Part shown: piece by piece, positions 11,232 to 55,570 of the stretch | Layout: each line of letters opens with the position of its first letter | How positions within the stretch are numbered: position 1 is the first letter of the stretch | Assembly (NCBI RefSeq): GCF_963506605.1 | Contig: NC_083281.1 | Location: 434,001 to 498,000, forward strand | From: Zootoca vivipara | Lineage: Eukaryota | Reading direction: 5' to 3' | Length of the DNA stretch: 64,000 nt | Program-made: the position numbers and the translations under genes | The notes under the pieces: generated by a model | What the model was told of the DNA's origin: nothing | Seen by the model: only the letters and a program-made list of their open reading frames with translations | The model's database searches: none

Positions 11232-11289
11232 AGAACAAACAAGCAAACAAGCCTTTCAACAGTCACAATCCAGTAACCTTGTGATAATA

Positions 11290-11595
11290 GAATCATAGAA
11301 TCATAGAGCTGGAGGAGACCACAAGGGCCATCCAGTCCAACCCCCTGCCAAGCAGGAAACACCATCAAAGCATTCTTGACATATGCCTGTCAAGCCTCTG
11401 CTTAAAGACCTCCAAAGAAGGAAACTCCACCACACTCCTTGGTAGAAAATTCCACTGCCGAACAGCTCTTACTGTCAGGAAGTTCTTCCTAATGTTTAGG
11501 TGGAATCTTCTTTCTTGTAGTTTGAATCCATTGCTTCGTGTCCGCTTCTCTGGAGCAGCAGAAAACAATCTTTCTCCCTCCTCCATATGACATAA
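11290..11595 (-). mobile_element. CR1 LINE 3' fragment
   Basis: [28 protein letters not shown]; (ATTCTATG)n tail. Confidence 0.9.
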
Positions 11596-27158: not shown

Positions 27159-29366
27159 CCGAAACTTCATGACCACCTTCTCTTCCCCTTTTCGCGGTTC
27201 CTTATATTCTAGATTTTAGCATTGCGGATCCGTTTTTATTCTATTGGTAATTTATCCTTGAAAATCTATTTAAATGATCTCACTGCACGTTTTTATCCCA
27301 GTCCTGCGATGAAAACCCATCGTAAAAATGGGATCTTCCAAATGTCCTCAGGCCTACAGCTTCTCGGTCCCATATGGGTGGGGTATAAATTATTATTTTT
27401 ACTATTATTATTATTAGTAGTAGTAGTAGTAGTTTTGCTTCCCCGCCATCAAGAGTGTCGTTCAGATTGCGCGACCCCCTAAGGGGGGAAATGATACAGT
27501 AGAGAGATGGTATATTTACAAACAACAATGGAAAACGGGATGGCAGCTCAATAAAACGAAAGTATAAATTACTATGGAAATTTTTGTGGAAACATTGTAT
27601 TCAAACATTGTAAAAGAGAGGGAATATAGCAGGGTAAAATTCAAAGCAGGAGCAGCGTATTTATTCAAAATCCAGTTAAAACTATTTAGTTTTAATAAAT
27701 AAGATAAATACAGTTTTTCAAACGGCTGCTCTAAAAGAAGCCTGACTTTTGGTCCTTGTACCTTAGTATTGCCCACACAGGCCAGCAGCAGCTCCTTGGG
27801 GTTCGAGGTCTTTTTTCTGAGCTCAGCCTGGATCAAATTTCTTCTGTTTCGCTCTTAAAGGACGAGCCACGGCTCTGCCGTAGAAGAAGTTTGACTCAGG
27901 GGAAAAGACCGTGAACCACGAGGAGCTGCTGCTGGCCCGTGTGGGCAATATTGAGCTACAAGGACCAAGGGTCTGGCTTCTTTTACACCAGCGGTCCCGA
28001 GCACTTGAAAAACTGTACTGTATTTATCCCATTTATGGAGGGCAATTTGAACCAGAAGCTGCCAGGCTCGCGGGAGCGCCGAGCTCAGGACTGTAGCCCC
28101 ACACTGACCGGCAGCAGCGGCGCTCCAGGGTTTTGGATTTGGGGGTGAGACGCATTCTCAGCCCTACCTGGAAAGGGGCTCTAACCACCTTTCCCTAGCC
28201 TGGAATAAAGGCTGCAGCCTCCCTCCCACTCCCTGGTTGTTTTCATCGAGGGGGGTAGACTGCTCCTAGACCAGGAGGCTCTATTTCACTATTTGCGGAG
28301 TTGCAGATCCCGGCTGGGGCACAAACACCCCTGCAAAAAAGCCTCTCTGTCTCCCCACGTCATGCCCCACAGCATCCCCGAACCCCAATCGTGCCTCTTC
28401 TCCACCTGGCTAGAGGACAGAGAAGCGGGTGCGAATCTGCCTTTACCTACGTACTGTATTTTTCTGTGTAGAAGACTACAGGGGGTACTGTATTTTTCCG
28501 AGTAGAAGACTATATTCCCCCCCATTTTTTTTAAAGTTAAAACGGGGGGGGGGTCATCTTGTACGTGGAATGTTGTGATTATTTATATAAATATAAATAA
28601 TCATATTTCTTTCTTAATTTTGGGCTCAAAAAATAGGGGCCGCCTTACACACGGGAAAATAGGGGCCGCCTTACACACGGGGGGGGGGGGAACTATGGTA
28701 AATGTGTACACTATTGCAAACAATTAACATTTGCTTAACAGATTAGACAACTGGGCCAAAGCAAACAAAGCAAACAAGATGAATTTTAACAAGGAGAAAT
28801 GTAAGGTACTACACTTGGGCAAAAAAAATGAAAAGCACATATACAGGATGGGAGACACCTGGCTTGAGAGCAGTACATGTGAAAAGGATTTAGGAGTCTT
28901 GGTAGACCACAAACTTGACATGAGTCAGCAGTGTGATGCAGCAGCTAAAAAAGCCAATGCAATTCTGGACTGCATCAATAGGAGTATAGCATCTAGATCA
29001 AGGGAAGTAATAGTACCACTGTATTCTGCTCTGGTCAGACCTCACCTGGAGTATTGTGTCCAGTTCTGGGCACCACAGTTCAAGAAGGATACTGATAAGC
29101 TGGAACGTGTCCAGAGGAGGGCAACCAAAATGGTCAAAGGCCTGGAAACGATGCCTTATGAGGAACGGCTTAGGGAGCTGGGTATGTTTAGCCTGGAGAA
29201 GAGAAGGTTAAGGGGTGATATAATAACCATGTTCAAATATATAAAAGGATGTCATATGGAGGAGGGTGAAAGGTTGTTTTCTGCTGCTCCAGAGAAGCGG
29301 ACACGGAGCAATGGATTCAAGCTACTAGAAAGAAGATTCCACCTAAACATTAGGAAGAACTTCCTG

Positions 29367-29496
29367 GTGTATCTGAAGAAGTGTGCATGCACACGAAAGC
29401 TCATACCAAAATATAAACTTAGTTGGTCTTTAAGGTGCTACTGAAGGAATTTTCTTATTTTGCTTCGACTCAGACCAACACGGCTACCTACCTGTA
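29367..29496 (+). mobile_element. 130-bp Penelope-like terminal fragment inserted in CR1, 9-bp TSD
   Basis: AACTTCCTG at 29358-29366 and 29497-29505; body matches 51198-51300 and, reversed, 55433-55536. Confidence 0.85.
29369..29406 (+). ncRNA. Minimal type I hammerhead ribozyme motif (Penelope-associated)
   Basis: GTAT-CTGAAGA-A-GTGTGCATGCACAC-GAAA-GC-TC-ATAC: stem I GTAT/ATAC, CUGANGA box, palindromic stem II, GAAA box, minimal stem III, UH cleavage site. Confidence 0.7.
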
Positions 29497-29925
29497 AACT
29501 TCCTGACAGTAAGAGCTGTTCGACAGTGGAATTTGCTACCAAGGAGTGTGGTGGAGTCTCCTTCTTTGGAGGTCTTTAAGCAGAGGCTTGACAGGCATAT
29601 GTCAAGAATGCTTTGATGGTGTTTCCTGCTTGGCAGGGGGTTGGACTGGATGGCCCTTGTGGTCTCTTCCAACTCTAGGATTCTATGAACAATCTGAAGC
29701 TGGACTGATCTAAAAGACGTGCGATGATTATAATTCATAGCTTCTTATATTTATTTTTAAAATGGGAATTGGAATGAGGAAAGGCAAGTAGGAAAAAATA
29801 CAGATGCTATGACGTAGAAAGGATGCAGGCAGAATTCGAATGGCTTACCAGAAGAGCTAAAATTTACAGTGGAAAATAAGGATGTGTTGAAATGCTACAA
29901 AATGGACAAAATTATTTATTATCAC

Positions 29926-35097: not shown

Positions 35098-35624
35098 TGT
35101 ATTCTGCTCTGGTCAGACCTCACCTGCAGTACTGTGTCCAGTTCTGGGCACCACAGTTCAAGAAGGATACTGACAAGCTTGAACGTGTCCAGAAGAGGGC
35201 AACCAAAATGGTCAAAGGCCTGGAAACGATGCCTTATGAGGAACGGCTTAGGGAGCTGGGTATGTTTAGCCTGGAGAAGAGAAGGTTAAGGGGGGATATG
35301 ATAGCCATGTTCCAATATATAAAAGGATATCATATGGAGGAGGGAGTAAGATTGTTTTTTGCTGCTTCAGAGAAGCGGACACGGAGCAATGGATTCAAAC
35401 TTCAAGAAAGAACATTCCACCTAAACATTAGGAAGAACTTCCTGACAGTAAGAGCTGTTCGGCAGTGGCATTTGCTGCCAAGGAGTGTGGTGGAGTCTTC
35501 TTCTTTGGAGGTCTTTAAGCAGAGGCTTGACAGGCATATGTCAAGAATGCTTTGATGATGTTTCCTGCTTGGCAGGGGGTTGGACTGGATGGCCCTTGTG
35601 GTCTCTTCCAACTCTATGATTCTA
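35098..35624 (+). mobile_element. CR1 LINE 3' fragment
   Basis: Near-identical to the other CR1 copies. Confidence 0.9.
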
Positions 35625-48407: not shown

Positions 48408-48892
48408 TAAGTCCCTGCGAGGTGGGAAGGGGTGAGGCTGCCTGCCTGGGCTGCAGGAATTAATGTTTATTTCATTTTTTTAAATGAGATTTTGCAGATA
48501 GGAATCGTGAGGCTTTCTCGACACCTTTGGCCCCAAACTGCGCCCGCGGCCTGGGAGAGAGTCAGAGAGACAGCTTTTATTTCCAGGGAAGGACCCTGAG
48601 TTTCTAGTCCTCCGGTTTCTGGACTTCGGTGCCCTTATTTTTCAGGGAAGGATCCCACCTTTCTAGCCCTTAGGGTGCACTTGAAATAGGAGCATAGGAA
48701 GCTGTCTTGTATCGAGTCCACTCAGTAGAAGGGGACCCCGGGGGTCATCAAGTCTGACCCCCCTGCAATGCAGGAACCTCAACTAAAGCATCCATGGCAG
48801 GTGGCCTTCTGACCTCTGCTTAAAAAAACCTCCAAGGAAGGAGAGCCCACTACCTTCCATCCCAAACAACTCTGACTACCAGAAAGTAGTCA

Positions 48893-49617
48893 AAAAAATG
48901 AAAGGCACAAATACAGGATGGGAGACACCTGGCTTAACAGCAGTACATGTGAAAAGGATCTAGGAGTCTTGGTAGACCACAAACTTGACATGAGTCAGCA
49001 GTGTGATGCGGCAGCTAAAAAAGCCAATGCAATTCTGGGCTGCATCAATAGGAGTATAGCATCTAGATCAAGGGAAGTAATAGTACCACTGTATTCTGCT
49101 CTGGTCAGACCTCACCTGGAGTACTGTGTCCAGTTCTGGGCACCACAGTTCAAGAAGGATACTGACAATCTGGAACGTGTCCAGAGGAGGGCAACCAAAA
49201 TGGTCAAAGGCCTGGAAACGATGCCTTATGAGGAACAACTTAGGGAGCTGGGTATGTTTAGCCTGGAGAAGAGAAGGTTAAGGGGTGATATGATAGCCAT
49301 GTTCAAATATATAAAAGGATGTCATATAGAGGAGGGGGAAAGGTTGATTTCTGCTGCTCCAGAGAAGCGGACACAGAGCAATGGATTCAAACTACAAGAA
49401 AGAAGATTCCACCTAAACATTAGGAAGAACTTCCTGACCTTAAGAGCTGTTCGGCAGTGGAATTTGCTGCCAAGGAGTGTGGTGGAGTCTCCTTCTTTGG
49501 AGGTCTTTAAGCATAGGCTTGACAGGCATATGTCAGGAATGCTTTGATGGTGTTTCCTGCTTGGCAGGGGGTTGGACTGGATGGCCCTTGTGGTCTCTTC
49601 CAGCTCCATGATTCTAT
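48893..49617 (+). mobile_element. CR1 LINE 3' fragment
   Basis: 209-aa open CR1 ORF2 C-terminus and tail. Confidence 0.92.
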
Positions 49618-49619
49618 GA

Positions 49620-50592: not shown

Positions 50593-50593
50593 C

Positions 50594-51302
50594 TGCAATA
50601 AACCCAGATGCCAACTTTGCTGCCACATACACCCAGACAACACCATTACTGGCCCCAACAACATCCAACATACCATCTCAGGACGATTTAATTGCTCACC
50701 TTCTAACATTGTGTATGCCATCAAATGCCAACAGTGCCCTTCAGCTCTCTATATTGGACAAACAGGCCAAACCGTACGCCAAAGGATAAATAGACATAAA
50801 TCTGACATCAGGAATCACAAGACAGAGAAAGCAGGAGGAGAACACTTCAATCTCCCAGGACATTCTATACAAGATCTCAAAGTAGCTGTCTTATTACAAA
50901 AGAATTTCAGAAATAGACTGGAAAGAGAAGTTGCTGAATTGCAACTTATTACCAAACTTAAAACCATGGAGAGATCTGGTCTGAATAAGGACATTGGATT
51001 CTTATCTCATTATACACGATAAAGCTTTCTTATGCCATCTCACCCCTTGCTTTTTCCTGCAAGACCAATTGCAGTCGTTAACAGTCGCCCACAGGTTTAC
51101 CACTCCTATCAGCCAATCACCCATTCCCACCACCCTTCTGAGCAATACCCCTCCCCACCCTCTCACTATATATAAGGGTCTGGTGACTTCTGTTTCAGTG
51201 TATCTGAAGAAGTGTGCATGCACATGAAAGCTCATACCTATGACAAACTTAGTTGGTCTCTAAGGTGCTGCTGGAAGGAATGTTTTTTATTTTGTTTAGA
51301 CT
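50594..51302 (+). mobile_element. Penelope-like element 3' part with GIY-YIG endonuclease
   Basis: ORF with CNKPRCQLC...NIVYAIKCQQCPSALYIGQTGQ..RQRINRHKSDI..HFNLPGH...GLN, followed by a terminal repeat with TATATAA and a hammerhead motif. Confidence 0.9.
51200..51237 (+). ncRNA. Second hammerhead motif copy, in the Penelope-like terminal repeat
   Basis: Same as 29369-29406 except C>T at the base of stem II (GCACAT-GAAA). Confidence 0.6.
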
Positions 51303-51393
51303 TTGGGCTCACATTTAGCTTGCGGTCCACCGAGACCCCCAGATCCTTTTCGCCCTCCCCTCATCTTAACTGCCGCCCCGTTTCTTCCGCCAG

Positions 51394-51595
51394 AGACCGC
51401 TTGCGGACCACCATCAACGTCCTGGGGGACTCGCTGGGCGCTGGCGTGGTGGAGCACTTATCCCGCCACGAGCTGGAGCTGCAGGACACGGACCTGGGGG
51501 TTGACTCGGGGGCTGAGGAGAACGCGAAGCCGTACCAGTTGATCTACCCAGAGAACGACACCCAGAAGCATCTCAGCGGAGAGACCTCAATGTGA
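51394..51595 (+). CDS. SLC1A6: SLC1A6 terminal coding exon; AATAAA at 52455-52460
   Basis: [28 protein letters not shown]...KPYQLI...ETSM*; nine exons total 1764 nt = 587 aa + stop. Confidence 0.95.
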
Positions 51596-52704: not shown

Positions 52705-53636
52705 GATGGACATACTAGAAGTAATTTTATTTTATTTTATAAAATGGTGATTTTCTCAAGTCAAAATTAGAGTACCCCTAAAAAATGTTTAGGGGAAAAA
52801 AAGCACTGAAGACGGTTATTAAAGCGGAGAATTGTGAAATGTCTGTGATGGGAGGGGGGAATGGGATCGGGGTGGTGTGGGAGCTACCGCAAGCAGGATT
52901 TGAACACAAGACCCTCTCCCCTTCAGTAAATTCCAGACACTGAGATTCAGGAGCACGTCTGCCTCTGAAAGCAGAGCCACTGGCACCATTGATGGTTTTT
53001 GCCTGATTCACTTTTAAAGCCTTCTAGGCTGGCAACCGTTAGGACACGGCGATATATTGATATATCATCCCAAACTGGTTTGAAGCCGATATAAGTTGCC
53101 CGTTTATAAAATGTGGTTTTTTGGTGGTGGTGGGGGAAGCTTTGGGTTCTCAATTTTATTTTTATTATGTATTTTGTGGTTTTATATCTTGATTTTATTC
53201 CGTGAACCGCCTTGAGACCCCCGGGTTATAAGGCGGCATATAAATGCAATAAATCATCATCATCATTTTTGACCTGGCAATATAGCGTGAAACACTTTTG
53301 CCGAGTTCTGTTTTTAACTATCGGTCGCTACGACGAATCTACCCGGGGAAAAGCAGGAAGTGTCCTGGGAAAAGAGGACCAATGGCAAGCCTATTATCAT
53401 ATTCTGTTAGAAGAATCCTAAGGCCTCAAATATAAAATGAATGTTCATAGGTGTGCTAGGTGAGCACGCATACATCCTATGCCCTTTTAAAATGTGGTTT
53501 TTGGGAGGGGGGCTATTGGGTTGTTTTTCTATCTATTATGTATTTTGTGATTTTATATCTTGATTTTATTCCGTGAACCGCCCTGAGACCCTCAGGTATA
53601 GGGTGGTATATAAATTCTAATGATGATGATGATGAT

Positions 53637-54252
53637 AGAATCATAGAATCATAGATTTGGAAGAGACCACGAGGGCCATCCAGTCCAACCCCCTGCCAAG
53701 GAGGAAACACCATCAAAGCATTCTTGACATATGCCTGTCAAGCCTCTGCTTAAAGACCTCCAAAGAAGGAGACTCCACCACACTCCTTGGCAGCAAATCC
53801 CACTGCCGAACAGCTCTTACTGTCAGGAAGTTCTTCCTAATGTTGAGGTGGAATCTTCTTTCTTGAAGTTTGAATCCATTGCTCCGTGTCCGCTTCTCTG
53901 GAGCAGCAGAAAACAACCTTTCTCCCTCCTCTATATGACATCCTTGTATATATTTGAACATGGCTATCATATCACCCCTTAACCTTCTCTTCTCCAGGCT
54001 AAACATACCCAGCTCCCTAAGCCGTTCCTCATAAGGCATCGTTTCCAGGCCTTTGACCATTTTGGTTGCCCTCTTCTGGACACGTTCCAGCTTGTCAGTA
54101 TCCTTCTTGAACTGTGGTGCCCAGAACTGGACACAGTACTCCAAGTGAGGTCTGACCAGAGCAGAATACAGTGGTACTTTACTTCCCTAGATCTAGATGC
54201 TATACTCCTATTGATGCAGCCCAGAATTGCATTGGCTTTTTTAGCTGCTGCT
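53637..54252 (-). mobile_element. CR1 LINE 3' fragment
   Basis: 143-aa CR1 C-terminal ORF and tail. Confidence 0.9.
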
Positions 54253-55131: not shown

Positions 55132-55432
55132 GTAGCACGGAAACCCACCTCGCCCTCCCGGTCTAGAGCAGGGCTTCCCAACCTTTTGGGGGCTCTTAGA
55201 ATAATTTTAAGGTCTTAGATATATCGGTCAAGCGGTTTCGGATATAGCTGGAGACCCACAGACAGACACATTTTTATTTATATAGATGTATGTGCTTGCC
55301 TTGTACATTTATGAACATTTTATTCTATATTTGAGACCTTAGGATTCCTATAAGGGGAGGCAAGGGTGCAAACAAACAATATTATTTTATTATTCTTACT
55401 ATAGTTATTATTGTAATTGTTATATTGTTAGT

Positions 55433-55570
55433 TACAGGTAGGTAGCTGTGTTGTTCTGAGTCGAAGCAAAATAAAAAAATTACTTCAGTAGCACCTTAAA
55501 GACCAACTAAGTTTTTATTTTGGTATGAGCTTTCGTACGAAAAGGTGCTACTGAAGTAATTTTTTAATTT
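55433..55570 (-). mobile_element. Penelope-like terminal fragment with short inverted duplication
   Basis: Reverse complement matches about 29394-29496; followed by inverted AAGGTGCTACTGAAGTAATTTTT. Confidence 0.8.

Follow-up and report, generated by a model that had tools for sequence, protein, structure and literature searches.

A hammerhead-bearing 130-bp insert in a Zootoca vivipara LINE is a short terminal-repeat copy of a Penelope-like element, and probably reaches back to the start of the element RNA

Introduction

The transposition cycle of Penelope-like elements (PLEs) and the role of their hammerhead ribozymes are open questions in the field. The accessible sections of the relevant papers nevertheless provide several points of reference. 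A CX2-5CxxC motif before the GIY-YIG endonuclease is given as the mark of Neptune and Nematis (PMC8557442). The pLTR of a rotifer element carries a TATA and an Inr-like motif, together with a 9-bp target-site duplication (TSD) and a tail (PMC3846280), and the promoter of Drosophila Penelope is described as internal and without TATA (PMC2377424). Minimal hammerheads have been reported in Neptune elements and in reptiles, their monomers being inactive and their dimers weak (PMC4209133). In PAc, a Poseidon element of the green anole, reverse transcriptase (RT) starts internally at two sites in vitro and both strands are extended; its hammerhead is protein-assisted, and unprocessed RNA serves as substrate (PMC11167929).

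The present analysis concerns a short insert in a 64,000-nucleotide stretch of Zootoca vivipara DNA, hereafter the window. The insert proves to be real and recent, and neither its element class nor its ribozyme motif is new: it is the end of the pLTR of a Penelope-like element that has intact parents in this genome.

Methods

Element positions are numbered such that +1 is window position 29367; all features described at the insert locus lie on the + strand. Candidate matches to the 130-bp insert numbered 379, of which 40 were scored. For the analysis of copy ends, copies were picked by their position in the genome, with anchors on the 3' side alone. Sample A comprised 93 copies out of the first 100 listed. 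In sample B, 72 copies were parsed among the first listed places, and 67 were retained after five that read far into the ORF had been set aside; four matches to full-length elements were not included, and copies in identical context were merged. Sample C was drawn from 100 listed of 111 matches, from which eight with 3' ends outside +120..+169 were set aside, leaving 92. Both A and B were taken from the same end of a single contig. The initial 130-mer sample, chosen for the full 130-mer, did not by itself serve for the 5'-end counts.

Results

The insert (29367..29496, element positions +1..+130) is 130 bp long and is bracketed by two copies of AACTTCCTG, the left at 29358..29366 and the right at 29497..29505, the initial 1-3 bases of the latter also matching the element tail. 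In 14 of 14 fetched sister copies of the host repeat the 9-mer is single and is directly followed by the downstream flank, so that the pair represents a genuine duplication. The host copy (28734-29688) shares 96-98% identity with its sisters; its 3' piece upstream of the insertion (28734..29357) contains an open 204-codon frame (28746-29357) that reaches the insertion point, and comparison with the sisters places its 3' end downstream of the insertion (29506..29688). A Pfam search of the 204-codon frame gave no match; we take the LINE to be CR1. These coordinates and the single 9-mers agree with the initial annotation, which had described a 130-bp insert with a perfect 9-bp TSD inside a CR1. 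Its claim of recent activity is likewise supported by 35 identical copies among the 40 scored candidates and by the intact parental ORFs described below.

RNA reads over the locus show a 139-nt skip, and contigs are fragmented in both repeats; the simplest source of the skip is empty sister CR1 copies, not an allele of this locus without the insert. The hammerhead-bearing unit is present once at this locus, and a scan of the window for the hammerhead core gave a sole other match, 21.8 kb from the insert. The window copy is probably inert, as a TATA box, an ORF and a partner hammerhead are all absent from its vicinity. Four further copies of the host LINE, 95-97% identical, occur in the window (11284-11593, 35098-35624, 48892-49619 and 53632-54251), and two other short copies of the element (L067 and L100) also lie within the same host LINE family.

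The insert matches exactly both pLTRs of a 3-kb element on C18 (L031), in which two identical 130-mers frame a pLTR-ORF-pLTR arrangement. The 383-bp direct repeats flanking its ORF are 99.5% alike, and both contain the 130-mer; the ORF itself stops at 824 aa, within the endonuclease. An intact 901-aa ORF was found in 9 of 15 further fetched regions, four belonging to subfamily A, that of the insert, and five to a sister subfamily B. This single ORF combines an RT (RVT_1, 46 bits) with a C-terminal GIY-YIG domain (24 bits), both above the Pfam cut-off, and its closest named proteins, 60-70% identical, are from turtle. Since CNKPRCQLC (residue 761) precedes the GIY-YIG motif, the linker is assigned to the Neptune type, the clade being read from this motif and not from a tree. 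The same RT and GIY-YIG ORF with a CX4CXXC linker, the same pLTR-ORF-pLTR layout, head-to-head arms, a tail of 30-40 bp and a TSD are described for endonuclease-bearing (EN+) PLEs of the Neptune/Nematis type in the accessible parts of PMC8557442 and PMC3846280. There, 5' ends are described as truncation, whereas here the largest class lies at one site.

The parental ATG is located at +140. Exact anchor matches numbered 4421 for the 3' anchor of subfamily A and 2523 for subfamily B. In contrast to the 4421 matches, only 111 exact matches carry the diagnostic C of the insert at +88 (29454), which tags a small young sub-subfamily. Among 100 of these 111 matches listed, none led to an intact parent, L031 being the sole full-length carrier of this C that was examined.

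Other remnants of the family occur in the window. An older 3' piece, about 85% identical (50593-51297, +), includes the endonuclease end, a TATA-like box and a hammerhead, and ends about 80 bp ahead of an exon-like frame (51376-51595, +). The latter, for which a Pfam search gave no match, is presumably the final exon of a glutamate transporter (SLC1A). A third piece (55429-55536, -) corresponds to approximately +27..+134 and is 96% identical. Next to the C18 parent lie fragments of an LTR retroelement, with gag-like, zinc knuckle and protease parts (L031 8198-9850, +).

A minimal type I hammerhead is predicted at 29369..29406 from the sequence, the fold and the features listed in PMC4209133. 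Stem I (29369-72/29403-06) encloses the core CTGAAGA (29373-79), an extra A (29380), a palindromic stem II (29381-94), the core GAAA (29395-98) and a loopless helix III in AGCT (29398-29401), with the predicted cut after C29402. The letters and the cut site are as the initial annotation had written them. The core strings CUGANGA, GAAA and UH, both stems and a palindromic 15.2-16.2 were all present. The motif thus has the features of the minimal hammerheads of PLE terminal repeats, as had been claimed: the loopless palindromic helix III, the extra base between 9 and 10.1, G10.1-C11.1 and the 4-bp stem I are the same, and no structural difference from the hammerheads in the accessible part of PMC4209133 was seen.

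The predicted structure was analyzed further. RNAfold gave stems I and II, with a stability no better than that of shuffled sequences (z -0.52), and when the CR1 flank was included a competing hairpin occupied the 5' strand of stem I. The Rfam search gave no hammerhead match at E<=10, a result uninformative either way for a minimal motif. Within the family the hammerhead is near-invariant, with one recurrent core change (7/98) at the free position N7, and its stems show no covariation. The downstream sequence, which includes predicted hairpin arms GTTGGTCT / AGACCAAC (29422..29479; sequence and fold), is equally invariant, and the invariance of the hammerhead is therefore no proof of selection. 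In 27 other motif matches with different stems (control 2), 77 of 135 stem II cells were paired, a value reached by 11 of 2000 permutations, while 54 of 108 stem I cells were paired, as reached by 633 of 2000. These older matches give modest support to the pairing of stem II, stem I being no better than permutation. Decayed hammerhead-like sequences with other stems (L276, L279, L291, L298 and others) form an older family, and no PLE ORF was found within 1.5 kb of such matches.

The initial annotation had remarked that the palindromic stem II and the AGCT region would suit dimer formation. The AGCU does suit a double hammerhead, with a predicted fold of -12.7 kcal/mol; the stem II palindrome, however, predicts another and far more stable duplex (-32.2 kcal/mol), which lacks helix III. 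The palindrome may matter more in joining inverted arms than for catalysis.

The 3' ends of the copies fell at +127..+140 in 93/93 copies of sample A and in nearly all of those in the other samples; in the window copy the corresponding "tail" (29468..29496) runs towards this zone, just before the position of the parental ATG. The 5' ends fell at -5..+10 in 30/93 (A), 23/67 (B) and 39/92 (C) copies, or 29/93 and 22/67 in samples A and B without L112 and L203, whose calls are doubtful owing to upstream element sequence of another variant. Per base, the rate in this interval was 0.038, 0.040 and 0.063, respectively, against approximately 0.001-0.005 in distant bins, and the binomial probability under a uniform spread was 9e-13, 7e-13 and 2e-17. 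Copies that, like the window copy, have no inverted arm followed the same pattern (14/37, 12/29 and 15/32). In an exact census of 255 arms the mode was +3 (48 arms), followed by +1 (28, a class partly inflated by a 5-base repeat in common with +14..+18), +4 (18) and +2 (15). The modal end, +3, corresponds to 29369, the first base of stem I and the likely transcription start; the window copy begins at +1. The initial annotation had proposed plotting 5' ends and TSD lengths, a continuous spread of ends to count against a discrete family. The ends proved discrete in all three samples, and the TSDs, called in 59/93 (A), 42/67 (B) and 69/92 (C) copies, had a mode of 12-13, so that the 9 bp of the insert lie at the short end for the family. 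The TSD and the tail overlapped by about 2 nt, compared with 0.4 by chance (samples A and B).

Further ends were observed away from the main site. A second cluster at +11..+28 (15, 10 and 22 ends in A, B and C) occurred almost exclusively in copies that have an inverted arm; some of its junctions coincide with the middle of the stem II palindrome. The rate at -50..-6 was raised in two samples. A local inverted arm was present in 45/93 (A), 34/72 (B) and 61/100 (C) copies. The outer ends of these arms lay mostly at +86..+101, compared with +127..+140 for the main arm; this zone, a candidate second RT start site, corresponds to 29452..29467 in the window. The inverted arms also terminate near +3 (-5..+10), in 21/40 (A) and 17/31 (B) cases. 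Two copies start at +1/+2 and extend beyond the ATG, to +161 and +175 (the latter being the true 3' end of L009), and tie the fixed 5' end to the ORF-bearing RNA. At the 5' junctions of L322, L340, L306 and L350, short stretches from within the first 35 bases of the element were recopied two or three times, which resembles slippage of telomerase-related RT at a template end.

A TATA-like box starts 30-31 nt before +3 at four of the five loci tested, as it does in the older copy in the window, across differing spacer sequences; this is the canonical spacing from TATA to start. The base preceding +3 was G in 30/48 arms (0.30 expected), and in 13/18 (p=2.7e-4) after exclusion of junctions explained by the element or the TSD and with one arm per insertion. 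At other ends G occurred in 13/97, a control that was conditioned differently from the +3 set. An extra G may derive from the cap, but it cannot tell a cap from untemplated addition. Literature searches, which covered the field in part, returned no report of a cap-derived G or of a 5'-end pile-up in PLEs.

Discussion

In our preferred reading, to which we assign a probability of roughly two in three, the insert is a dead-end copy, primed immediately ahead of the start codon and extended back to the likely first base of the RNA. Its basis, namely the intact parents, the common sequence, the fixed 3' ends, the piled-up 5' ends and the TSD, is a matter of direct observation. The events in between can be proposed as follows. 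The TATA-like box in the 5' pLTR would start the RNA at about +3, such that stem I would form its very beginning, and the GIY-YIG domain would make a staggered cut, of 9 nt here and usually of 12-13. The freed DNA end would pair through 1-3 nt with the tail (+127..+140) of the 5' pLTR and not with that of the 3' pLTR. The RT would then pass the uncut hammerhead and run off the end of the RNA, often adding one base, either as a copy of the cap or untemplated. In about half of the events a second strand would be primed at +86..+101, giving the head-to-head arm that is absent from the window copy. Since synthesis would reach the 5' end of the RNA, the predicted ribozyme would be copied uncut, and uncut RNA would be the usual template.

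Several points qualify a start of the RNA at this site. Neither a start nor an end at +3 or +37 was listed among raw RNA reads bearing the same species label; on the parental 5' pLTR about 90% of them continue into unrelated flanks, with an ORF depth of 0-8, and, being dominated by passenger copies, they are uninformative as to the start. The ends scatter over -5..+10, the window copy itself beginning two bases before the mode, and they include the second cluster. The promoter of Drosophila Penelope, moreover, is internal and TATA-less in the available part of PMC2377424. It is conceivable, if unlikely, that the short copies are of Penelope origin but that their fixed end arises by 5'-3' trimming stalled at stem I, by release of the RT or by antisense self-priming. 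The coincidence of +3 with the first pair of stem I would fit such an end, as would the second junction hotspot at the centre of the stem II palindrome, and antisense self-priming is favoured for rotifer elements in the accessible text of PMC3846280. An RT blocked by the hammerhead, however, would be expected to stop 3' of the motif, at about +41, where there is no excess, and the TATA spacing of 30-31 nt across subfamilies with differing spacers would be left unexplained. A splice acceptor at +1/+2 is excluded: subfamily B has no AG there yet shows the same pile-up.

A more specific form of the preferred reading, in which the commonest product would be a full-length cDNA copied from the capped 5' leader of the mRNA, with RT starting at the first tail and copying the cap as G, is proposed tentatively, at slightly less than even odds. 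If it holds, the hammerhead begins at the first base of the RNA, and cleavage would only take off a capped 34-nt leader. The ribozyme would then be an off-switch for translation, not a producer of transposition templates, and genomic copies alone would locate the promoter as well as the two priming sites, with no need of RNA data.

The initial annotation had offered a choice between a 5'-truncated Penelope product and a discrete non-autonomous, retrozyme-like family. The Penelope origin stands, but neither random truncation nor a retrozyme-like family does, the ends being discrete and a separate lineage lacking. That the short pieces are a self-propagating family, retrozyme- or SINE-like, whose promoter is internal and whose mobilisation occurs in trans, is improbable. 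Discrete boundaries, TSDs of their own and thousands of copies would suit it, and non-autonomous pLTR derivatives are already known from the literature, as far as its accessible parts describe them. Against it, the same three main haplotypes are common to 92 short and 70 long copies (56/27, 21/26 and 6/4), a single variant being restricted to short copies (2 versus 0). Neither common transduced flanks (by inspection) nor head-to-tail arrays of the 130-bp unit were found among the parsed copies. The lack of a separate lineage among the short copies marks them as by-products that the autonomous element has generated repeatedly, and not as a retrozyme family. Non-LTR retrozymes, as the available parts of PMC7229834 and bioRxiv 10.64898/2026.07.22.740005 describe them, are also short, non-coding and pLTR-related, with a type I hammerhead. 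They differ in their tandem arrays cut at the hammerhead, their own amplification and their circular RNA, whereas here dispersed copies carry the haplotypes of the autonomous element and their ends avoid the cut site.

Ordinary random 5' truncation, with a start at the hammerhead by chance, is more improbable still. PLEs are described as highly 5'-truncated in the accessible part of PMC8557442, and a background of scattered ends is indeed present; the binomial values in the three 3'-anchored samples refute it at the family level, whereas the assignment of any one copy is less than certain. Template ends produced by self-cleavage are the least probable reading: one copy (L198) starts exactly at +37, but only 4 DNA 5' ends in the three samples fall at the predicted cut site (+35..+39) against about 6.7 expected, and the window copy holds the complete motif.

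Compared with PAc (Frangieh et al. 2024, PMC11167929, as far as its accessible text goes), the present element would have the same two RT start sites defining a tail and the same extension of both strands, and insertion of PAc without need for hammerhead cleavage fits the anatomy seen here. In contrast, PAc primes 111-118 nt inside its ORF, whereas the present element would be primed just before its ATG; the PAc ORF begins within the hammerhead, which here lies 140 nt upstream of the ATG; and PAc is primed without homology, whereas the junctions here overlap by about 2 nt. The element class and the hammerhead motif are of an already known kind. The contribution made here is to quantify the fixed 5' end, together with its TATA spacing and extra G, a modest mechanistic refinement. 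Intact ORFs and near-identical copies in the thousands make this young family a source of single-base positions for the likely promoter and RNA start and for two priming sites, and a Neptune-type element becomes testable with the assay used on the anole Poseidon element.

Local arrays of other pieces of the element were seen at L181-L184 (G000:C1:2777914, period 598) and L231 (G000:C1:22262874, period 263). They hold subfamily B pieces that run from the pLTR into the ORF, not the 130-bp unit. Among the candidates seen, the 598-bp unit, in which the hammerhead is complete, comes closest to a retrozyme.
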